Part shown: positions 2,358-30,460 of the stretch, in pieces
Layout: the number at the start of each line of letters is the position of its first letter
Numbering within the stretch: the stretch's first letter is position 1
DNA from: Candidatus Saccharimonadota bacterium
Lineage (GTDB): Bacteria > Patescibacteriota > Gracilibacteria > BD1-5 > UBA6164
Length of the DNA stretch: 32,000 bases
Direction: 5' to 3'
Assembly: GCA_965229705.1 (NCBI GenBank)
Contig: OZ245922.1
Coordinates: 450,001 to 482,000, forward strand
Notes under the pieces: generated by a model
Database searches by the model: none
Told to the model about the DNA's origin: nothing
Seen by the model: only the letters and a program-made list of their open reading frames with translations
Made by a program: the position numbers and the translations under genes

Positions 2358-4334
2358 ATGAAAATCATTGTCTGACTCTGAAATCCTTGAAAAAAATATA
2401 GCTCTACCAGGCACAATCTTGGTTTTTTATTCTTGGAGAAGTTTGCTCAAGAGCAAGATTTTTCCCCGTGGAAGTATGAGTGAAAATTTCTTGCTGATAT
2501 TTCTGAGGGTTTTCTCAATAGTTCTTCTAATCCGCAGGAAAAAGTCATCCTTCTCAAACCACAAACATTTATGAATGCATCATGACAAGCTCTCAAAAAA
2601 ATACGAAGTTTTTATAAGCTTTCTGTTGAAGATTTTACCATAATATACGATGATATTTCTCTAGAGTTTGGAAAAATTCGACACAGAAAAAAGTGAAGTG
2701 CTGGAGGTCATAATGGGATAAAAGATATTATACGAGTTTTTGGTGAAGCCTTTCCGCGTATAAAGGTATGAGTAGGAAATAATACTCATTATGATGTTTC
2801 TGATTGGGTGCTTTCGAAGTTTTCTCAAGAGGAACTCATAGAAATAGACTCTCACATTTATACATGAATATATGATACTCTGATGAGCTCTCTTTGTGAT
2901 ACCCCACTGAAGGCAAAAAAAGCAGAAAAAAACTCTCCCAAAAAAAAAGAAATATATTTTGTATGAATCGGCTGAATTTGAGTTTCTGCTCTTGCAAGAT
3001 ACTATCTCTCAGAATGATATACAGTATATGGAAGTGATAGTGTAAATAGTGATCTTATAAAAAGTCTTCAAAACGATGGCTGTGATATCACTATTTGAGA
3101 AGCTCCTGAGAAAATACACAAAAATCTTGAACTTTGTATTTTTTCACAGGCAGTTCCAGAGTCACAAAGTGAAATACAAAGAGCTCGCTCTCTTTGAGTT
3201 ACAACACTTTGTTATAATGTTGCTCTCTGAAATATCGTAAATCAGTATAAACTCATTGCTATTACTGGAACTCATGGGAAATCTACTACAACGAGTATGA
3301 TAGCTCAGATTTTTCAAAACAGCAATGAATCATTCAAGGCGATAGTTGGAACACTTCTCAAAGAATTTGATGGGAAAAACTTTTATACCTCTCCTAAAAA
3401 CGAATCTGTTTCTCATCTCTCTTCATCATCAAAAAATAGGTATTTCATCATTGAAGCTTGTGAGTATAAAGAGCATTTTCTTGCCTACAAACCGAGTGTT
3501 GCCGTGATAACAAATATTGAGTATGATCATGCAGATTTTTTTACTACTCCTGAAAGTTATCTCCAAGCGTATGAAAAGTTTGTAGAAAATATTGTTCCAT
3601 GAGGTTTTTGTATTCTCTACGGAAACGACACTCTCTCATCATCACTTATCTGAAAAAGGTGAGATATTCACTATATTGTCACGTATGAAAAAAACTTTGA
3701 GCTTATCACTCCTCAAACTTGAGTGCAAGAGCAAAAACAACGCTTTGATTTTCCAGAAATTATACTTCATATTCCGGGAGACCATATTATGATTGATGCA
3801 AAACTTGCGTATATAGCCTGATATTTAGCTGGGATTTTAGAGCGTAGCATGCTCGAAACTCTTGAGAATTATAGTGGAGTTTGGCGTCGTATGGAGCAGA
3901 TCTGATATACCAAGCATCATCATCTCCTTATGAGTGATTATGGTCATCATCCTACGGAGATATCTCTGACTCTTGAAGCCATCAAAAAATCTCACCAAAA
4001 CACTCCTATTCTCACTATTTTTCAGCCTCATCAGTATAGTCGTACGATTGAACTGTTTGAAGAGTTTCGAAACTGTTTTTCATATACTGATATACTGATT
4101 GTTCCAGATATTTATGAGTCTCGTGATAGTGATGAAGATATAGCAAAAATGAGTAGCAAGATTTTTACTCAAGCACTTCATCATTCGAATGCTCTTGATG
4201 GTCAGTGAATGAAAAATACCCTTCATCTTATTAAAAAATATGATAAAGAGTATTCTTGAAAAGAGCTTATTATTCTCTTACTGTGAGCGGGAAATATCGA
4301 TAGTTTGAGGTATGAGATAGAGATGGGTGAATAA
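2358..4334 (+). CDS. pth/murC: single ORF fusing peptidyl-tRNA hydrolase (about 2358-2882) to UDP-N-acetylmuramate--L-alanine ligase (about 2883-4334)
   Basis: The N-part [23 protein letters not shown]...GGHNGIKDI is Pth; all three Gly of GLGNPG are TGA (2373, 2379, 2388). A Lys-rich linker follows (MSSLCDTPLKAKKAEKNSPKKKE, ATG at 2883). MurC follows: IYFVGIGGIGVSALA...ITGTHGKSTTTSM...DYGHHPTEI. I checked every codon and found no TAA/TAG until TAA 4332-4334. Confidence 0.8.
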
Positions 4335-7775: not shown

Positions 7776-8405
7776 ATGAAATACTCCCTCACAGCTACAT
7801 CTATCGTTGAGTCTCTTGTGGTATTACTCATAGTAGTTGTTGGAGTAGTTGGTGTTTTTAGCATCATGAACTCTGCACAAAAACTTTCACAGGCAACAGA
7901 TGATCGTATAGAGGCTATACAGATTGCCCGTGATGGACTTGAAGCATTTACTAACATTCGTGATACTAACTGGCTCTTGTACAGTGCAGACTTACAAAAC
8001 TGTTGGAATACCCTCAACTATGATGCTAACTGTATTTGAAATACTTGAGACTCAACAGACATAACTGCATGATCATACCGAATTTATAGAGACAGTTCCA
8101 CTGATCGTTTTGTTCTCTCTGCATCAAATCAAACAGGTGGTTTTGTAGATCCAGATTATCGAAGCAGTTTTCAAGTATTTCTCGATGATCGAAAACTCTA
8201 TACACAAATATCAGGAGAACCTCTAAAGTCACTCTTTACTCGTCGAATGCTTCTTGAATACTACAAACAAGATGATACTCTGTGAGACTCAGGTGATCCA
8301 AAGATGAAAGTCACTGCCATCGTTGAGTGGAATAATAGCGCCAAGCAGTCACCAAGCATTCTAGAGATAGATATGCTCCTCACAAACTGGAAAGAGAATC
8401 TTTAG
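7776..8405 (+). CDS. pseudopilin / type IV pilin-like protein
   Basis: The N-terminus MKYSLTA|TSIVESLVVLLIVVVGVVGVFSIM has a short leader, Glu at +5 and a hydrophobic helix, like a prepilin N-terminal domain. 4 in-frame TGA were checked. The stop is TAG 8403-8405. Confidence 0.5.
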
Positions 8406-8410
8406 GAAAG

Positions 8411-8543
8411 CTCTGAGAAACTCCTTTTCCAAAGGAGAAGAATCTATTCTCCCTTATCAAGGGAGGGGTTGGGGGAGGGTTATATATTCTAGAGATGGCT
8501 CGATAGAGCCAGAGAGGATTAGAAATTTTTCTATTTTTCAGAA
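8411..8543 (+). repeat. family A structured intergenic repeat, copy 1 (MITE/REP-like)
   Basis: It matches the reverse complement of 22686-22833. Exact shared runs include aaggagaagaatctattctccc and gggttatatattctagagatggctcgatagag (32 nt). The left end is ctctgagaaac. It contains GGGAGGGGTTGGGGGAGGG (8461-8479) and several hairpins. The right end is degenerate, so boundaries are approximate. Confidence 0.8.
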
Positions 8544-8548
8544 CTTCT

Positions 8549-11500
8549 TTAAGCTGCCCTCTTTGACTTTCCTATAGTATCACTCGCCTTTCCTTTAATA
8601 AGATCTGAGAGTGTTTCAGGATCTTCTTGTTTTTCCGTATCAGTAAAAATATATCCTCATTTTCCATCGCTTCTGGTAGGTCTCTTATAACTAATACCGT
8701 GAATTTCATAATCAATAACTTGCCGAACAAGCCTGTCTAAGAGGTCTTTGTTTCCTCATTTTTTAATACTCTCTACATCAGCTCAAGCATCTACCATTTC
8801 ATTAAAATATACTCCCCAATGGTTCAGTGCTGTATGGTATCATGTTGGAGCATTAAAACTCTCTATCCCTCGTCAGGAAGTATAAGTACCCAAAACAGCT
8901 GAGATAAACTCTCGCAGGTTATGTTCCAAGAGCTTTTCCTGCATCTTTCTCGTTTTTTCAGGATCTCCAGGATAATAATCTCTTTTGGGAATAGCTTTGA
9001 ATTCATTCTCTATCTCCTTCCACATAATTGGTCATGCCTCGTGCTTTCTCCAAATACCATCATTTCATTTTTCAAGAAGTTGTTTTGTAGCTCTATATAA
9101 ACTCACTCATGATGTTCCTGCCATTGCAAATGCATCTGCCATAAGCTCTTCATTTGCGCCATAGTTTCCATCTGCATATATATATCACTGCATTTTCTCA
9201 TAATACTGGCGAAAAATGGGTTCTTCATCTTTTTCAAAGAATATCATCTTATTGTGTTTATCTTCTGTATTTCAGGTATTGAGCATATACAAAATATTCG
9301 TCAATATCTCACCATATTCCTCATAAAATGTAATTGTTTCTCGTTGTTTTTGTCGTTCGTCTATTTTTTCATATCTGTTATCATAAATCCTTCTGGCTTT
9401 TTTTTCTATTCCACTATGTCCTCTTGTTTCAAGACGAGTACATATCTTCATAATGGTATCATTGAGAAGGTCTATATCAGCCCTATAAGACATCATCCTG
9501 AGCATCATAAGCATGCGTGACTCACCTGGGAACCTCTTTACCTTATCAAGAAGGTTTTTTTCATAATTGTACGCCATACCAGAAAACACCATCACAAAGG
9601 GTATCATATTCATCTGCTTCATTGTTCCTCACTTATCTGTCACGCTCTCAAGCCATCCAAAAGCATTGGGGTAGTTTCCTGACTCAAGCTCTGAGAGTCC
9701 TCAGTCAAGTCTATCCTTAATATCACGCTCGTTTCCACCGTCTTTTTTCCCTGTCTCGTACTCTTCATCTTTTCCCTGTCCTCTTTTTGCCTTGAGTTCT
9801 TTATCAAGTTTTGACCGACGAGAAACACCATTGTATCATCCGGGAGCAGTTTGCTTTTTCATGAGCATATATACCAGCTCCTCTTCTGTGGTATTTTGCT
9901 TTGGATCTCGGTTATTTTTTGTATGTACATCTTTCCAGTTAGAGTCTCCAATGCGGCCTCACATCTTTTGATACCAAAAATATTGTCCCTGATATTTATA
10001 CAGTTCCTTAGCGCAAAGAGCACCATACTTTTCAAACATATAAAACATCCCTGCTTCTTTTTTGTACTCTGGTGTGCGTGGATCTTTGAGCCAAGACTCG
10101 ATCATGCGTGTCGCAATTTTTGAGTTGATATCTTTGAGACGAGTGATGATCTCGTCCATATTTTTTTTCTGTGTTTGTTCAACGCGGGAAACAAGGTCGG
10201 TTCTCGAATCTCACAAGAGCGGTCAAAATACTGAGAGTGCAAACTTATTTGCTTTATCATCTTCTGACTCAGTGAGCATGTTTTTTATTTGCTCAATACC
10301 CGTCTGTCATCACTTTATTGCAGCAGAAATAGACATATTTTGAAAAAACCAGTTCATCAAACCAAATTTTGTTTCTGGTGTTGGTATCCCTGCTATTTTT
10401 TCTTCTTTTACTTTTTCCTCGTCGATGCTTCGAAACTCAAGCTTATTTTTACGAATATAGTGATCTAGTACTCATGCAGTGATGTAGTAGTCTCTATTTT
10501 CTACGGCAAATATTTCTCATTTTTCATCTCATTTTTTAGGTGCTTTCTTCTGTGTTTTTGCTTCTCAAAAACTCACTCGTATCATACTCCCTTCGATACC
10601 GTGAATCTTGAGAAGTTCTTGACTCGATGAATCCTTCTTTGGAACAAGATAGTCATAATCTATATTGAGCTTTGTTTTTTTATTTTTTATTTTTCCTTCT
10701 TGAAGTTCGAAGCTGCTCCAAGAAGTATATGTATCATCTGTTTGATGAAAGAGCTCTCAAAAATCGTTTATTTTTGAGACACGCTGTGATTTCTTCTTTT
10801 TAAATGCTGTGAGAAAGTCATGATAATCAATAATTTCACTGTTTCCAAGTCATTTTATTGTGATTTTTTGATTGACTTCGTCAATATCTTGCACCGAGTA
10901 AACATCTCATTTTCCTTCATCTGTTACAAAGTTCACTCCTGTTTCAAAACCATGTGTCTCTCAGAGATGATCATACTCATTGAGAGCATTTTTGAGGACT
11001 GTCAGGTTATTTGCCTCAATGCTTTCTATCAAAGACATTTTTTCTTCTTTGAGTTTATAGAGCTCTTTGAGTTTTGCTGCTGAACTTTCTTCACGAGAAA
11101 GTCTTTCTTGATCTGCGTGTTCTTGGGCTTCATAAAGAGTTATGCCTGATGAAAAATCAGATAGTGGAATACCTTCATCCATGAATTCCTTATAAGACTC
11201 TATCTGCCTATTGAGTTCGTCTATTTCTTGAGAAATTCATAACCGAGACTCAAAACGACCGTTCATATTTTTGTCCGTTACTTCTCAGGCACGAATCTTG
11301 TGATCTAATATCTCAGGAGAAGCTATCTCAACACTTTTGAGGATATGTCCCTTTGTAGCAAAATCGACAAATTCACTATATGTTTGTCGTGATGTTTTTA
11401 CATTTCTCGCTGAATTATCATATATATCTACTCATTTTTCTGCTATAGTAAATGTTCCTCCTGTTCACAGAGAAACAATATCGGCAAAAAGTGTTACGGC

Positions 11501-12625
11501 TTTTGTATTTCATGACGCATCTTTCTCTTGTTTTTGTACAATGATTGTTGCGCCTTGCTGAAAGTGTTCTATTCATGAAATATGATCTACAGACGAAAGC
11601 ATATCTTGCATCTCTCGAACACTTTGGATACTTTTTTCTGAGAGTCTTTCTTCTATTTTTTCTACTACAGTGTTGAGTTCTTTTTGAAATTTCTCAAAGA
11701 AAAAGTTTTTTTCAAATAACTTCTCCTGATCTTCTGCATTTTCAAAAATCCCCTTCGTAGAAACAAATACTTTTTTGTTATCTATCTCATCAATATAGTT
11801 ATCAATATGTATTCCATCAAGGTTCCTATCTCAAAAAGTATACTCTAAGAGTTGTCTCTTTACCTGACGAATAACAGATATATCCCATAGTTTCAATTGC
11901 AATATATCATCAAGTGAAATATCTGGCATACATGCTTCTATCACGCCTTGCTTTTCCTTTGTGGTGAGAATCTTTGACTCAAAAAATACCATAATATCCT
12001 CTAGTTCAAAGCGTTCTCTTCATCGCATTTTTCTGAGGTTATCTTGAAATGCTGTCTGCAAATGAGGTTCAAGCCTATCAAAGCGTTTCTCTATATCAAG
12101 ATCTTTTAAGGCCTTACTCACGAGCTTTCTTTTTGGCGTCTTTTTTTTGCAAGTGTTTGTGATATATGCTTCTCGTTTTTCTGATGACGCGCAAAGACTT
12201 TGGATATCTTTTTCTTTTGTGATGGCATTAATGCTTGGTGAAAGAGATTGATCATACTCATGAGGAGAGATATCGTATTCTTGGAGTATTGTTTTTCTCA
12301 GAGTCATTTTCTGAGACTCAATACCAACAAGATAGTGTCATATTTCTCTGTGTATATCCCGAGGAGAAAAAGTATCTTCATCTATAGAGGCACCCTGAAA
12401 TTCTGATTTTCACTGTTGAAAAGAGTGTATTTCTGCTATAAATTTTGCTGTCAATTTTGGAGCATTTCCTATTTCTTGAGCAAAGGACAATCTCTGATCG
12501 GTATTTTCGAGTTTTTTTCATACATATGCTCTCAAAAGACGCTGGTTTTTCTCCTGCGTTGTGAATTTTTTATTTGCTGATTCTGAAGATGTTTCACGCA
12601 TATTTCCAGTATTTACTCCTGTCAT
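8549..12625 (-). CDS. very large hypothetical protein (1358 aa), no recognisable domain
   Basis: Track fragments 12020..12307, 10961..11182, 9959..10159 and 9272..9622 are in one frame. I scanned all plus-strand triplets of that frame from 8549 to 12727 and found no tta/cta (no TAA/TAG). ATG at 12625; alternative ATGs at 12673, 12658 and 12601. TAA at 8551-8549. Dozens of TGA codons. Confidence 0.7.
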
Positions 12626-12727
12626 ATACTCTGATTTATAAAGTATTTGATATATCATACCAAAAAATAGCATAAAAATCAAAAAACTTCCTCTTTTTTT
12701 GCTTGTAAAAGGTTTGAGACTGATATA

Positions 12728-12766
12728 CTAGGGAAGCACGGAAAAATAAGATCCGTATTTCCCGAG
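12728..12766 (-). repeat. family B repeat, minimal copy (two terminal repeats, no core)
   Basis: The sequence is ctagggaagcacggaaaaataag + atccgtatttcccgag. These are the two terminal inverted repeats of the 14645-14792 element, placed back to back. Confidence 0.6.
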
Positions 12767-14605: not shown

Positions 14606-14644
14606 CCCTCAAAGCTCTAAGCAACAAAAATCCTCCAATCCACT

Positions 14645-14792
14645 CTAGGGAAATACGGAAAACTTCGTATTTCATCGTCAAAGTGCAACATTGTCTTCAA
14701 ACTCGTACAATGAGTACGCTTATTTCAGCCAAGTTGCATTTTCCTTGAAATACTTGTTTTTACACACTTCCTATTTTTCCGTGCTTCCTTAG
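14645..14792 (+). repeat. family B structured intergenic repeat, full copy (MITE/REP-like)
   Basis: The terminal inverted repeats are ctagggaaatacggaaaa ... ttttccgtgcttccttag. An internal hairpin is gaaatacg-gaaaactt-cgtatttc. The core matches the reverse complement of 16657-16807, with exact runs cttcgtatttcatcgtcaaa and caacattgtcttcaaactcgta. Confidence 0.8.
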
Positions 14793-15251
14793 TATGCCTC
14801 TTATCCATTTTTTAAATCTATTTCGTTCTCATGAAAAATTTGTGAGAGAGTTTTCTATAAAGTTTCAGCTTCAAACACGATTAAGAAGGTCACTCATAGC
14901 TGATTGTGCTTCATGACTGAGATGTTTCTCAACAAACTTTTTATAAACATACGCAAATGCTTCTGCCGAATCTATGCATAATTTACGTATATTGTCTTCT
15001 TGTACAGAGATATCTCAAGATGCTCATAATGGTATCAAATATGACTTTTCACTCTCTTCTATAAAAAAAAGCTCTCCTTCTCTCATTTCAAAACGAGATT
15101 TTTTGCTCTGTTTCAAACTGTAGTTGATCGAATCAAATATCGTGTCAGTATACTCAGGATTACTTGGATCTGCTGACTCGTAAAGAAAGCCCAAAATCTC
15201 TGTAAAGCCATCGTTTCAAGGAGTCTCACTTACTGGAGTAACACCTCACAT
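14760..15251 (-). CDS. hypothetical protein (163 aa)
   Basis: ATG at 15251 (alternative at 15275) and TAA at 14762-14760. Open under table 25 and checked. Translation: MGGVTPVSETPGNDGFTEILGFLYESADPSNPEYTD... The last 10 codons (LRKHGKIGSV) are encoded by repeat B. Confidence 0.4.
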
Positions 15252-15299
15252 AGCTCTTTTTCTTACTCAATACATACAAAAAAAATTAAAAAATAAATA

Positions 15300-15328
15300 T
15301 TGACGCTTTTTGATTTTAGTTGATAAAT
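15300..15328 (+). promoter_or_regulatory. candidate sigma70-type promoter upstream of tgt
   Basis: TTGACG (15300-15305), a 17-nt spacer, then ATAAAT (15323-15328). It lies in an AT-rich divergent intergenic region about 120 nt upstream of the tgt ATG. Confidence 0.35.
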
Positions 15329-15449
15329 AATCAATTGCAAACTTTTTTTTGAAAAAAATAAAAAATACCACAATTTCAATATTTTCATATACTTAATTTG
15401 AGAAGAAGTTCTGACAAGAAAACTTGGAAAATATTTCATAAAACAATAT

Positions 15450-16604
<1,155 letters not shown>

Positions 16605-16656
16605 TTTTTTCTTAATGGATATACTTTCTATATATTCAGGAAGCTCTGAGAAATCC

Positions 16657-16807
16657 CTGAAAAAATCATGGAAAAATAAGAAATGTGCAAAAACAAGTAG
16701 TTCAAGGAAAAATCAACTTGTCTGAAATAAGCGTATCTCTTATACGAGTTTGAAGACAATGTTGGATTTTGACGATGAAATACGAAGTTTTTCCGCATTT
16801 CCTTAAG
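16657..16807 (-). repeat. family B structured intergenic repeat, full copy (inverted relative to 14645-14792)
   Basis: Its reverse complement reads cttaaggaaatgcggaaaaacttcgtatttcatcgtcaaaatccaacattgtcttcaaactcgta... and aligns along the whole 14645-14792 copy. The left boundary is approximate. Confidence 0.8.
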
Positions 16808-25479: not shown

Positions 25480-26007
25480 ACTCTGAGTGGAGATGAGCAA
25501 TCAAAGAAAGCTGTCTATGATATTATAGCAAAGTTTGAATCAGAGCTTGTGCCTGAATGACTCCAGCAACTTCATAATATTTGTGCGCCAAAACAAGCAT
25601 GATGAGCAGAGAAACCCATGACAATATTTTATCAAAGCTTTTCACTCACAGATGTGAGAGGAGCCATAGAAGTCTTCATGGATGATGAGAAGTTTGAAAA
25701 AGCCAAAGCCACTGAATGACTCTGAGCATTAAGTATTGTGAAGATTATGAAAGCACTTATGCATTTTCCTAAGTATGCTCAATATAATTTTTGTGATGAT
25801 GGCAAAGAACTCTCAGAACTTTTTCCAGGACTTCGCATAGAACTTCCTGATCGCGAAAGCATTCAACAAAAATGAATCAACTCATTCCCACACTGCTTAA
25901 GATTAACTTCTCAAACTCACAAAGATGCGACAGATATTTTTCGAGCTCTATTTACGAGATGAGTTATTATTCCACAAAAAAACTCAGACAATATGGAAGA
26001 GTAATAT

Positions 26008-27108
26008 TTAAACTAATTTAATATCATTTGAGAATGAAATAAAATCTAACTTTGGAGAAACTCATATATTTATATTTTTAACTTTTAATCATTCATTTAC
26101 AATACTAAAATTAAATGAATCATAATTTGGAGTAAATTTTTCAGAAATATTAATAATATTATCGCATATTTTTAACAATGGTTCTGTATCAATATTATAT
26201 ACCCTATATATTATGAATTTTTTACAATCTTTTATAAATCTAAGTTCATTTCAACTAAAAAACATATCTTGTTCAAATTTATATCATGTAGTTTTAACAT
26301 CAGAAAAAATTGACTCTCAATCTTTATCTATTATTTCAAAGTCATAAGGAAGATATGATTCTCCTAAACTATTAAACCATTCAAAACTAGTAATTAATCA
26401 GTTATTTTTTAATTCTTTTAAATAAGTATTAATCAACTCCTCCCCTTTTCTTCAAACTTCTATAAATCTTTTTTTAGCTTTTTCTATATCATATTTTCTA
26501 GTGTTAACTCTATTAATTAACTTAGGTGATAATTCTCATAGTTGAACAATACTTTCTAATTCTTCTAAATACTCAATATTTACCTTATTTATTTTACTAT
26601 TTAGATATTCAATAATGCCTTCAAAATTACTATCTTTTATTCATAAAGACAATTTATCTAGACTATCTCATCATGTAATAAATGATGTTAAGTAATTATA
26701 GTCTTTATCATTTTGTTTAAATAAGAAAAAAATTATATCATTGTTATCTAATCAAAACCACATTAAATACCATTTATTATTAATATCACCATCTACAATT
26801 TCTCTAATCTCTTTTACAACTGAATTCACATTTATTCAAGATAATTCAGATCTATTTCAAGAACGTATTTTAGGACTTCTATATGAGCCATCTGATTTTT
26901 TAATTAAATCTAAAAAAGTAGCTAATTCCTTAACACTATCCTCATAAATGAATTGAGCAAAAGACTGATGATGAGTATTATCTATAAAATCTAATGTATC
27001 TTCGAATAATCATATATGTGTTTGATGACTAGTCTCTCATATTCATAAATCAGCTTCTGAAAGTAATTTACAACCTATTTTTGCACTATCATGTAGTTTA
27101 AAAAACAT
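26008..27108 (-). CDS. candidate restriction endonuclease: EcoRII-N/B3-like N-domain + DUF3883-like PD-(D/E)xK C-domain (366 aa)
   Basis: ATG at 27108 lies 4 nt after the M2 stop; TAA at 26010-26008. The frame was checked line by line. The N-terminus has GCKLLSEADLGIGETSHQTHIGLF (compare EcoRII IKRLSANDTGATGGHQVGLYIP). The C-terminus has GRKGEELINTYL...LPYDFEIIDKDGESIFSDVKTTGYKF...FFSGNELRFIKDCKKFIIYRVYN, which fits the D...(D/E)xK and DUF3883 pattern. Confidence 0.65.
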
Positions 27109-27112
27109 AATT

Positions 27113-28201
27113 CTATTTTATATAATTAAAGTCTATCAAATATCTTAAAACCGAATATACAGTATTAATACTTACTGCATTTCATGCTTGTTTATATAGT
27201 TGGTGATCACTAATTCATACATTTGATGCATTAGTATAAAAATCATATCAAAATCATTGTAATTTTAAAGCTTCCCAAGGAGTTATTTTTCTAATTTTAT
27301 GCTTAATTTCATCATCTTTATCAAATTTATTTTCTAGATATGTATATTTACACTTACTATCTAAAAACTCTTGTGAATAATAATTATCTTGACATGCTCT
27401 ATGCATTTTTACCATTGAGGCAGTCAAAGGTCTTGCTATTAACTGATTTATTTCAGATTTTGACTTAAAAGACTTTGTTCAATTAGATAAAATAGTTGGC
27501 TTTATTTTTTCTGATAAGAAATACTTATCATCATCTAGTTGTAAATCTAATAATCAATCTAACACATCATTGTATATATTAATACTAGAACTATTACTAA
27601 ATCATTTAAAACTTTCTTGAACTAAATTTTCATCAAATTTAGTTCAAGAATCTAAATTTCTCTTAACTGCATAAATATATAATCTTCTCCTTGTTTGAGG
27701 TAATCAATAATCAGAGGTGTTAAATATATCTTCATATACATTATATCAAGAAATTTCTAAAGTAGTTTTTATAATATTATATGTTTCTCAATTATTATGT
27801 GTAAATAGATTTCTAACATTTTCTAATAAAATATATTTTGGCATTTTAACCTCAACTATTTTCATAACGGAAAAAAACAACCCTCATCTATCGTCATTTA
27901 ATCATAATTGCTTTCACATCATGCTAAAAGGTTGACAAGGAAATCATCAAAATAGTATATCAAAATCTTCAATTTTATTAATATTATTATTTTCAACAAA
28001 ATTTACAATATCTCAAATTTCATGTTCTTTATCTGTACAATAATTAGATTTATAAGAATTTGTTGCAAATTTATCAATTTCTGAGAATCACACACATTTT
28101 GTTTCAAATCATAAGTCATTTCCTAATAACTCTAAAGACTTTCTAAATCCTCCAATTCAAGAAAATAAATCTAAAAATTTTATTTGTTTTATCTTTTTCA
28201 T
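27113..28201 (-). CDS. DNA (cytosine-5)-methyltransferase M2 (362 aa)
   Basis: Motifs in order: I DLFSGIGGF, IV GGFPCQPFS, VI LLENV, VIII LPQTRRRLYIYA, IX ITPWEALKLQGF, X AGNAVS. ATG at 28201 and TAG at 27115-27113. The frame was checked line by line. There are many TGA codons, so nothing appears in the track. Confidence 0.9.
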
Positions 28202-28211
28202 AAGTATTTAA

Positions 28212-29609
28212 TTATTTTAAATGCTTAATAATATGTTTTCATATTAATTCTGCTAATTTAACTGGTACAGCATTTCAAATCTGCGCATACCAAGTATTAT
28301 TAGCTCACATAAAAATATAATCATCCGGAAAAGTCTGCAACCTAGCTGATTCTCTCGGACTTAATCATCTCGATTGAGTAGGATGAATATACATATTACA
28401 ATCCATTTTCATATGAGAAGTTATAGTTTTAGAAACCTCTAATTCATGTAATTTATAATATTTATCCTTAAAAATATGATTTCTCTTATTATATGGCATA
28501 ATATCACTTATAGAATCATGTAAAGAATTAGCTCACTGAGGTAATCTAGAAAAAATTTCTATATCTCTTTCATTATTATATCTATTAGTATGATTGAATA
28601 AATAATTAACTGATCTATTGTTTAAATACGATTCATATTTTGTTATAGAATATTTATAGTCTTTTATTTTAAATCAGATAATATCATTTTCTAATTCTGA
28701 ATTATTTTTATGCATTTTAACTCATAAAACTGGTAATCAATCCAATGCATCTTTTAACTTAAAATTTAAACTATTTTCTTTTTCATTAACTATATCTTTA
28801 GTTATATCTTTTGCACTTACATTATCTAATCTACTTCATATTACAAATACTCTTTCTCTATTTTGTGGTATACCAAAGTCTTTTGCATTTAATAACATAA
28901 TTGATATTGAATAATTATTTCATAAATTATTTAAAAAGTCATTTTTAACTTCATCAGATTTATTCATCATTCATTTTACATTTTCCATTACAAAAAACTT
29001 AGGATGAATTAGTTTTAATAATTTTAAATAATATCTATATAACTCATTTCTAGGATCATCTATTACTCTTTGTCTATTTGCCATTGAAAATCATTGACAA
29101 GGAGGTCATCAAACTATTAAGTCTATATTTTCAAAATTAGTCTTATATAATTCAAATTCATCAACTAATTTCCTTATATCATCACAATAATAATTATCTA
29201 ATTTAATATCTCTATTAAAATAATATGATTCAAGAAATTTAGGTTCAATTTCATTAATAAAAACTGGATTAAATCAAACATTCTCCATTCATAAACTTAA
29301 ACCTCAACATCAAGCAAAAGTATCAACAAATTTAAATCTTTTATTTTTATTATCTTGATTCTTACTTATAAATTTCAACAAAGTATCTGATAAGTTTTCC
29401 TTATTTTTAATCAGTGTATAATATAATTGATTTACTCTTTCCCAATCTTTACTTAAAAGTCATTCATTGTAATCTTCAGATAAACAATATGAATAATTCT
29501 CAACTATATTTATTCATTCAATTAACAATAATTTTTCTAAATCTTTTGTTAATCTACCAACCTTTGATTTATAATTATTTTTTAAATATTTTTTATAAAA
29601 CTCAATCAT
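28212..29609 (-). CDS. DNA (cytosine-5)-methyltransferase M1 (465 aa, about 95-aa N-terminal extension)
   Basis: Motifs in order: I DTFAGCGGLSLG, IV GGPPCQGFS, VI VMENV, VIII IPQNRERVFVIG, IX RESARLQTFPDDY, X IGNAVPV. ATG at 29609 and TAA at 28214-28212. The frame was checked line by line. Confidence 0.92.
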
Positions 29610-29770
29610 TTTCTACTTTAATTATATGTCTTTTTAATTATAAATATAAAAAAATACCAAGCATACAAGATGTATTTTAAATACAGCTAATATATACATT
29701 ATATATACATATTTAAAAATCAAGTTTATATTAATAATATATGATCTCTTGACTCTATCGTGTGGTGGAG

Positions 29771-30460
29771 CTACTCTCTCTCCAAGTTATACTCCCCCTC
29801 TTCAATATCACTCACTACCTGCTTGCCCTGAAATGTTATTACTCGTCTCTTCATCTGATTCACAATGTTTTTGTCATGCGTAGCAATGATAATAGTCTTT
29901 CCGTCTTTATGAAGATCATCAAAGATTTTCATAATCTCCTCTGCCGTAACTGGATCAAGATTCCCTGTTGGTTCGTCTCCTATGATGATACTTGGTTCAT
30001 GAACCAATGCTCTCGCGATAGAAACGCGCTGTTTTTCACCACCTGATAATTCTTTTACGGAAGTATCTTTCTTCATCAAGAGCCCTACCTGTTCAAGAGC
30101 TGTTGGAACTTTTTTGTATATTTGAGAATTTTTATATCCACACACCTCCATCGCAAAAGCAACATTTTCAAATACTGTTTTTGACTCCATGAGTTTATAG
30201 TCCTGAAAAATCACTCCAATAGACTTTCGATATGCCAGTAAAAGTTTCTCTGTAAGATTTTTATACAAAAACCCTCCATTATCTAAAACAATATCTCCTC
30301 TCTCTGGAGGAAAATCTCCTATAAGAGAACGGATAAGTGTTGTTTTTCACGATCATGAATGACCGATAAAAAATACAAACTCTCCAGGATGAATTTCAAG
30401 AGAAATATCCCGAAGAACGATTTTGTTTTTAAAACTGAGAGTGAGCCTGTCTATTTTCAT
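29771..30460 (-). CDS. ftsE: cell-division ABC transporter ATP-binding protein FtsE
   Basis: Translation: MKIDRLTLSFKNKIVLRDISLEIHPGEFVFFIGHSGSGKTTLIR (both Gly of the Walker A SGSGK are TGA) ...LSGGEKQRVSIARAL...IIIGDEPTGNLD... TAG at 29773-29771. Confidence 0.88.

Follow-up and report, generated by a model that had tools for sequence, protein, structure and literature searches.

The closest counterparts on record of the gene described here are hypothetical proteins from metagenome-assembled genomes (MAGs) of Candidatus Gracilibacteria (contigs CALDZK010000005.1 and JAHDGX010000003.1; P0002-P0164), which are collinear with its product over the full length at 95% to ~20% identity. Public data hold this family solely as nameless hypothetical proteins, and two papers on Gracilibacteria (PMC6851277 and PMC11452946) do not mention the protein. 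The gene lies on the minus strand of a 32,000-nucleotide stretch (the window hereafter) of contig OZ245922.1 (positions 450,001 to 482,000; assembly GCA_965229705.1, Candidatus Saccharimonadota bacterium) and encodes 1,358 amino acids. We found that it is an intact, vertically inherited, single-copy gene in a 1.0-Mb BD1-5-type Gracilibacteria genome that reads TGA as glycine, and that its product is a soluble multi-domain protein of a lineage-restricted family matching no described sequence family. It is new by its distance from known kinds, in that profile libraries detected no known family and whole-model searches no known fold, rather than by a demonstrated new mechanism.

The open reading frame (ORF) is the largest in the window, and runs as a single frame of 1,358 codons to a TAA stop at 8549-8551. 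Under translation table 25 it contains 37 in-frame TGA codons and not one TAA or TAG; the remaining five frames each hold 11-48 of these stops. For a gene of this base composition (36% G+C), the probability that 1,358 codons would lack TAA and TAG by chance is ~6e-36. Under table 11, by comparison, the longest ORF in the region 8549-12682 is only 116 amino acids long. An earlier, sequence-only reading of the window had described the frame as real, continuous, the largest gene present and translated through TGA, with a Lys/Glu/Asp-rich product, and each of these points was borne out. The protein contains 10.4% lysine, 9.9% glutamate, 6.8% aspartate and 0.4% cysteine, is about neutral overall, and includes both peptides that had been quoted from it. 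The same reading had named frameshifts or stops hidden by a chimeric assembly as one danger to its claim; collinear, full-length homologues in dozens of genomes exclude a chimera or frameshift.

Next, we looked at how TGA is decoded. We took 15 homologous genes from whole genomes, marked TGA as unknown and aligned the translations. In the alignment columns that contain TGA, glycine was enriched 4-fold and tryptophan was reduced to 0.19-fold. Fourteen well-occupied columns combined TGA with glycine only, and none combined TGA with tryptophan only. The sum of TGA and GGN codons was roughly constant among the homologous genes, and TGA is the commonest glycine codon of this one (37 of 97). In addition, the full Pfam domains of several neighbouring genes, namely Pth-MurC, SecD, RlmN, RseP, the HD-domain protein and the MurJ-like protein, require TGA readthrough. 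By these alignments TGA is glycine in this gene family, which places the gene under code 25.

The table-25 open frame extends upstream to a TTG at 12682 (8549-12682, minus strand; 1,377 amino acids), and the residue numbers of domains given below are counted from that codon. The true start is likely to be the ATG at 12625. We prefer this codon because the homologues, when aligned, start with MTGPN or MAGPN exactly there, and because the host's genes generally lack Shine-Dalgarno sites, having A/T-rich leaders right before their start codons instead (17 genes checked in the window). The upstream TTG would also fall within a promoter-like site (Table 1). Support for this site is weak, as two such sites were found and 1.9 were expected in shuffled sequence. 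Upstream of the TTG we noted the sequence AGAGGAAG, which is unusual in a genome whose genes do without Shine-Dalgarno sites and is therefore probably not a ribosome-binding site.

To find relatives of the protein, we searched at several depths. A word-seeded search returned 15 near-full-length relatives of 1,187-1,390 amino acids, with identities from 95% down to 28%. An exhaustive HMMER scan of 1.8 billion cluster representatives, each standing for a cluster at 50% identity, returned 223 at E <=0.001 and 113 at E <=1e-30; nearly all of the 223 are 1,200-1,450 amino acids long and collinear with the query. The source genome (1,006,762 bp in one contig, 96.7% complete) holds one copy of the gene. 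With a profile built from 16 close relatives, the family was matched in 64 of 65 sampled genomes of its own GTDB family, in 31 of 66 of the sister family (f97), in none of 19 of a third family (f98) and in none of 200 from the rest of the phylum, a result that holds for this narrow profile. A profile of 36 divergent members matched in 13 of 13, 7 of 7 and 1 of 1 genomes of the three families of the order, the last match being weak. A profile of the alpha core described below, searched against proteins of 64-996 amino acids for stand-alone or fused copies, retrieved just fragments of the same family that arise from standard-code gene calls. Together, these searches indicate an order-wide, single-copy family that is nearly universal where it can be detected. 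The description of the protein as an orphan is thus refuted by the 223 representatives and by the presence of the gene in almost every sampled genome of its GTDB family.

No library that we searched contained a domain resembling the protein. The best Pfam match of the window protein was DUF7234 at E 0.075 (13.6 bits against a cut-off of 24.4), and Pfam found no match in any of 36 divergent members. NCBIfam, PHROGs and PADLOC profiles gave nothing meaningful for the window protein, PDB chains compared with profiles of 16 and 119 sequences gave best E values of 5 and 1.8, and a search of the ESM Atlas with a family representative (P0007) returned no usable match. A motif scan of the protein found no P-loop, HExxH or CxxC. 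No membrane span was predicted, the highest 19-residue Kyte-Doolittle mean being 1.36, and judged by hydropathy the polar N terminus (MTGVNTGNMRETSSE) shows no signal peptide. The sequence-only reading had recognised no domain, catalytic motif, signal peptide or transmembrane topology, and had left room for a fusion of ordinary known domains. Profile, motif and hydropathy searches agree with the former on every count, and none of the libraries gave a profile match of the kind that such a fusion would produce.

We then predicted the structure of the protein with AlphaFold2 in two overlapping parts, using alignments of ~60 diverse homologues. The N model (m8ecf18041b39; residues 20-558) had a predicted local distance difference test (pLDDT) score of 88.0 and a predicted template modelling (pTM) score of 0.71, and the C model (residues 545-1377) had a pLDDT of 87.7 and a pTM of 0.76. 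The models outline a series of modules (Table 1). The N-terminal helical domain is the least conserved part of the protein and gave no fold match when the N model was searched as a whole. It is followed by a first small barrel, for which Foldseek listed ribosomal-subunit chains, an Agenet domain and a small protein of unknown function, with probabilities of 0.9-0.97 and E values above 0.1. The beta-rich region beyond the helical hairpin holds a conserved basic motif, KAKRVSK, with an arginine (R634) that is 98% conserved, and a lysine-rich loop (residues 706-723; 10514-10567) that is modelled with low confidence. In the conserved aromatic segment F780 is invariant, and S784 and K790 are nearly so. 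The all-alpha core is the best-conserved part of the protein and gave no significant fold match in searches with the whole C model. Foldseek searches of PDB and BFVD, together with wide and second-look VIA-align searches, were run on the two AlphaFold2 models and returned generic small barrels and hairpins only; matches to solenoids, Cas12, DH-PH, Spt6 and RasGEF were all insignificant. The scores lie in the range that these tools describe as common arrangements.

Conservation is concentrated in one part of the alpha core. In an alignment of 119 sequences (A2), most of them 20-35% identical to the query, the residues E876, K885, Y886, K892, W903, Y904, D913, E933, E934, Q944, R955, R956, K961, E974, E998, N1006 and S1034 are 85-100% conserved, and many conserved glycines fall in the same stretch of residues 865-1035. 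D913, E933 and F1029 are invariant in alignment A3. No conserved histidine or cysteine was found anywhere in the family alignments. In the C model these polar and aromatic residues sit on short helices and connecting loops. About 17 of them are thus near-invariant, although elsewhere the protein has diverged to 20-30% identity. Because charged and aromatic residues are so sharply conserved in a compact stretch of a fast-drifting protein, we regard this patch, with modest confidence, as the putative functional centre; a catalytic or specific ligand-binding pocket would fit the pattern better than a passive scaffold.

Table 1 Features of the gene, its predicted product and its surroundings. Residues are numbered from the TTG at 12682; positions are those of the window.
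Feature	Residues	Positions	Strand	Details
Coding sequence		8549..12625	-	1,358 codons + TAA; 37 TGA = Gly; frame extends to TTG 12682
Promoter-like site, TTGATT-17 nt-TG-TATGAT		12654..12682	-	~22-29 nt upstream of the ATG; consensus match only
N-terminal all-helical domain	42-362	11597..12559	-	N-model helices 23-343; pLDDT mostly >90
Small SH3-like beta-barrel 1	379-454	11321..11548	-	N-model strands 360-435
Antiparallel two-helix hairpin	480-570	10973..11245	-	
Beta-rich region, two or three small SH3/Tudor/FeoA-like barrels	583-751	10430..10936	-	
Conserved aromatic segment, KFGLMNWFFQNMSISAAIKGG	772-800	10283..10369	-	Poorly modelled; pLDDT <50 at C-model 228-256
All-alpha core (~540 residues)	792-1328	8699..10309	-	C-model helices 248-784; pLDDT mostly 90-98
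Conservation hot spot, candidate active or ligand site	865-1035	9578..10090	-	Column frequencies, 119-sequence alignment A2
C-terminal tail, small beta hairpin + terminal helix	1336-1376	8555..8677	-	C-model strands 792-802, helix 814-832; poorly conserved
Convergent 209-amino-acid neighbour, minor-pilin-like		7776..8405	+	Kept within the GTDB family
Repeat A copy		8401..8545	.	Fills the spacer to the convergent pilV-like gene; insertion, outside the gene
Repeat B remnant, 27 nt		12725..12751	.	Divergent spacer with rseP, 100 nt upstream of the ATG

The gene occupies a defined slot. On one strand lie tgt, an HD-domain gene and rseP; the gene is divergent from rseP and is followed by a convergent gene for a protein of 204-295 amino acids, and then by rlmN and secD. 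This order is kept in three related genomes (L014, L017 and L018), whose copies are 30-50% identical to the window protein, and the window agrees, its tgt lying at 15450-16604. Across these genome pairs, RlmN is 72-85%, SecD 64-80% and the HD protein 55-70% identical, RseP 37-45% and the small convergent neighbour 39-43%. The 1,358-amino-acid protein (30-50%) is therefore among the fastest-evolving products of these six genes, with the lowest identity of all in L017 and L018, whereas in L014 both RseP and the small neighbour score lower. Genes of RNA modification and translation abound nearby: tgt, rlmN, an rRNA adenine dimethylase of the RrnaAD family, a pseudouridine synthase and pth.

We propose that the protein serves nucleic-acid or ribosome/RNA metabolism as a housekeeping factor specific to its lineage, and that its functional domain is alpha-helical and new; to this tentative reading we give somewhat less than an even chance. 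In this model, the protein would act inside the cell, since it is helical and Lys/Glu-rich and has neither a signal peptide nor a membrane span. The ~170-residue subdomain of the alpha core (residues 865-1035) would serve as its catalytic or ligand-binding centre, and it would attach to a partner macromolecule through its small barrels and hairpin. The usual ligands of such barrels are nucleic acids or the machineries of transcription and translation, and it is on account of these usual roles and of the RNA-modification-rich surroundings that a nucleic-acid or ribosome role is suggested. Our confidence in the cytoplasmic action, the docking modules and the housekeeping role is modest. A bolder version holds that the alpha core and its patch constitute a novel enzyme or ligand-binding fold whose function all BD1-5 Gracilibacteria require, perhaps in place of a conventional RNA or ribosome factor missing from such reduced genomes, and that it shares ancestry with zincin-containing giant proteins of Peregrinibacteria; we think this unlikely.

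Several observations weigh against a housekeeping role in RNA metabolism. The protein diverges much faster than its housekeeping neighbours (30-34%, against 72-85% for RlmN), a pace seen more typically in envelope or conflict proteins. The neighbourhood theme is weak and its genes are not co-oriented. Synteny is also lost in the sister GTDB family, where a homologue (20-24% identity) lacks these neighbours within ~7 kb; the slot is thus a product of vertical descent inside a single family and not of an operon. SH3-like barrels are found as well in numerous proteins without nucleic-acid binding. Finally, the models were searched as wholes of 539 and 833 residues, and queries of more than 400 residues can hide single-domain matches, above all in the alpha core. 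The tRNA-modification neighbourhood (tgt and rlmN here, and dus beside one Peregrinibacteria relative) is a weak lead; elsewhere the neighbours of the relatives are unrelated, and those of the Peregrinibacteria proteins share no common theme.

Among the alternatives, the one that fares best is that the protein is a highly diverged orthologue of HExxH proteins of 1,100-1,500 amino acids from Peregrinibacteria-like relatives, which has lost the protease module and kept the alpha domain. Searches with a wider profile gave per-genome E values of 1e-5 to 1e-8 over ~100 residues at a matching relative position, where the alpha core starts, and it is at the aromatic segment (residues 772-800) that this weak similarity begins. 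These matches lie inside TGA-free ORFs of 1,071-1,362 amino acids from other families of the class; the relatives have a consensus IHExxHxEF and weak matches to DUF6782, M78 and M91, and in one such genome rseP is again nearby, on the opposite strand. In a direct profile comparison, however, hhalign reported a weak E of 0.0019 and a probability of 14% at the same relative position, and BLAST found 27% identity over 113 residues only. Even if true, the relationship would say nothing about the activity of the shared domain. We consider orthology somewhat unlikely, and treat homology to the Peregrinibacteria proteins as a tentative lead from sequence comparison rather than a result. Proteins of 1,084-1,356 amino acids with a conserved IHExxHxEF, putative zincins with no Pfam assignment, were seen in three Peregrinibacteria-type genomes of other families of the class that use the standard code (L021, L022 and L023).

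The main rival, offered as speculation in the sequence-only reading, is that the protein is a host-interaction or cell-contact factor, exported non-classically, possibly tied to type IV pilus-like machinery and acting at the host of a presumed episymbiont. The family is lineage-restricted and its divergence is among the fastest in the neighbourhood, its conserved convergent neighbour is minor-pilin-like, and its possible relatives in Peregrinibacteria carry HExxH and match effector-type zincins weakly. Yet the protein shows neither a signal peptide nor a membrane segment, nor any adhesin-type repeats or beta-rich surface domains, and it is helical and Lys/Glu-rich in make-up. The gene is single-copy and conserved in full-length collinear form, with no module swapping, in a fixed housekeeping slot, and its product has an invariant polar patch. 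The pilin-like gene is convergent rather than co-transcribed, and its adjacency is lost in the sister family; the family itself has neither HExxH nor a conserved histidine. We do not favour a role in host interaction, which appears quite improbable, over the housekeeping model.

A purely structural role is equally improbable in our judgement: a cytoplasmic scaffold or cytoskeleton-like protein, built as an irregular alpha-solenoid with docking barrels and without catalysis, that would organise a lineage-specific complex. The top Foldseek rows for the alpha core, all insignificant, are indeed alpha-solenoids (CAND1, importin-beta, Rpn2, beta-catenin and PUF), and a helical hairpin and several small interaction-type barrels accompany the core. 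Against this, the TM-scores of these rows are 0.1-0.18 with E >0.04, Pfam detected no solenoid sequence repeats (HEAT, ARM or PUF), and the conserved residues are mostly charged or polar and lie in short helices and loops within ~170 residues, unlike the hydrophobic cores of solenoid repeats.

A number of other candidates were tried and rejected. The protein is not itself a zincin, having no HExxH, with no conserved histidine in the family, nor is it a coiled-coil ATPase of the SMC/Rad50 type, as it has no P-loop and a single hairpin of ~90 residues, and its matches to the coils of Rad50, condensin and MukB are generic. A secreted or surface protein, such as a Sec substrate or an adhesin, is contradicted by the polar N terminus, the maximum hydropathy of 1.36 and the mostly helical models. 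An origin in a phage or mobile element was rejected for the fixed slot and the lack of any BFVD or PHROG match, and a defence system for the lack of a PADLOC match and for the core, syntenic nature of the gene. A role tied to TGA reassignment was also set aside, because the family was not detected across all sampled TGA-recoding relatives and has weak relatives in standard-code lineages.

Turning to the flanks, the sequence-only reading had presented the gene as bracketed by two repeat families. A copy of repeat A does lie by its 3' end, a few bases away from the stop codon, and a piece of repeat B lies by its 5' end (Table 1), so the description is right as to position; it fails as a meaningful association. 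Repeat A, or its ~52-nucleotide module (window 8491-8542), recurs at 40 or more places across the 1.0-Mb genome, ~7 times as a long copy and at least 35 times as the module, at 87-100% identity. It is missing from all of the homologous loci fetched from related genomes, and the convergent spacer it fills here is merely 3-27 nucleotides long in L014, L017 and L018. The repeat B remnant is 93% complementary to 14769-14795. The bracketing is thus incidental, reflecting dispersed small elements that landed in intergenic spacers, and a functional link of the gene to repeats A and B was rejected on the grounds that these are genome-wide elements missing at the locus in other genomes. A further trace of repeat B is seen at 14606-16791, where ~850 nucleotides separate the HD gene from tgt, in contrast to the direct HD-tgt succession of related genomes. 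This gap holds repeat B copy 1 and an ORF of 203 amino acids (14760-15371, minus strand) without a Pfam match. A second, inverted B copy (16664-16791) lies just past tgt (15450-16604), such that two inverted B copies flank tgt.

The convergent 209-amino-acid neighbour has a hydrophobic N-terminal helix like that of type IV pilins (MKYSLTA/TSIVE) with a glutamate at +5; its matches to PilV and ComGE fall below threshold. It remains adjacent to the gene in L014, L017 and L018 and is gone from this position in the sister family. Within the window, this pilV-like gene stands apart from any visible pilus operon. Elsewhere in the window, a single frame of 658 amino acids (2358-4334, plus strand) fuses a peptidyl-tRNA hydrolase to a complete MurC-type Mur ligase, with Pfam matches in both halves. 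Positions 26001-30000 form a low-G+C island (21-25%, against ~35% elsewhere) with three tightly packed minus-strand ORFs.

A 4-kb single-copy gene that almost all genomes of an order retain is likely to be important to the cell, and the polar patch offers a concrete entry point for mutagenesis and biochemistry. The record is also corrected: the gene represents a well-defined family of unknown function that could receive a Pfam entry of its own, and is neither an orphan nor a repeat-associated oddity. Large unknown proteins are common in Gracilibacteria, and it is thus a good target rather than a surprise.

How does the protein compare with known systems? Its small SH3-like barrels recall those of Tudor and Agenet proteins, the KOW domains of Spt5, FeoA, the translocation-signal domain of TraI and TnsB. 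The scores of these comparisons fall in the common-arrangement range, there is no sequence similarity, no aromatic cage or KOW motif was identified, and the barrels make up less than a quarter of the window protein. With the large pilus-associated proteins of the PilY1 type it shares a size above 1,100 amino acids and a gene that adjoins one for a PilV-like minor pilin. PilY1 itself is made with a signal peptide, has a beta-propeller at its C terminus and is transcribed together with the minor pilins. A PilY1-like pilus tip protein was rejected, as the window protein has no signal peptide, its C-terminal half is all-alpha and its gene is convergent to the pilV-like gene. The Peregrinibacteria HExxH protein JW758_05790 (P0165; 1,356 amino acids), annotated as hypothetical, is of similar size, belongs to the same GTDB class and is weakly similar where the alpha core begins; the Peregrinibacteria proteins use the standard code and carry a zincin-like HExxH block that is missing from the window family. 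The homologues from Gracilibacteria MAGs share the length (1,200-1,450 amino acids), the domain order and the invariant residues of the protein and, within the same GTDB family, its genomic slot as well. There is no substantive difference between them and the window gene, which is an ordinary member of the family.

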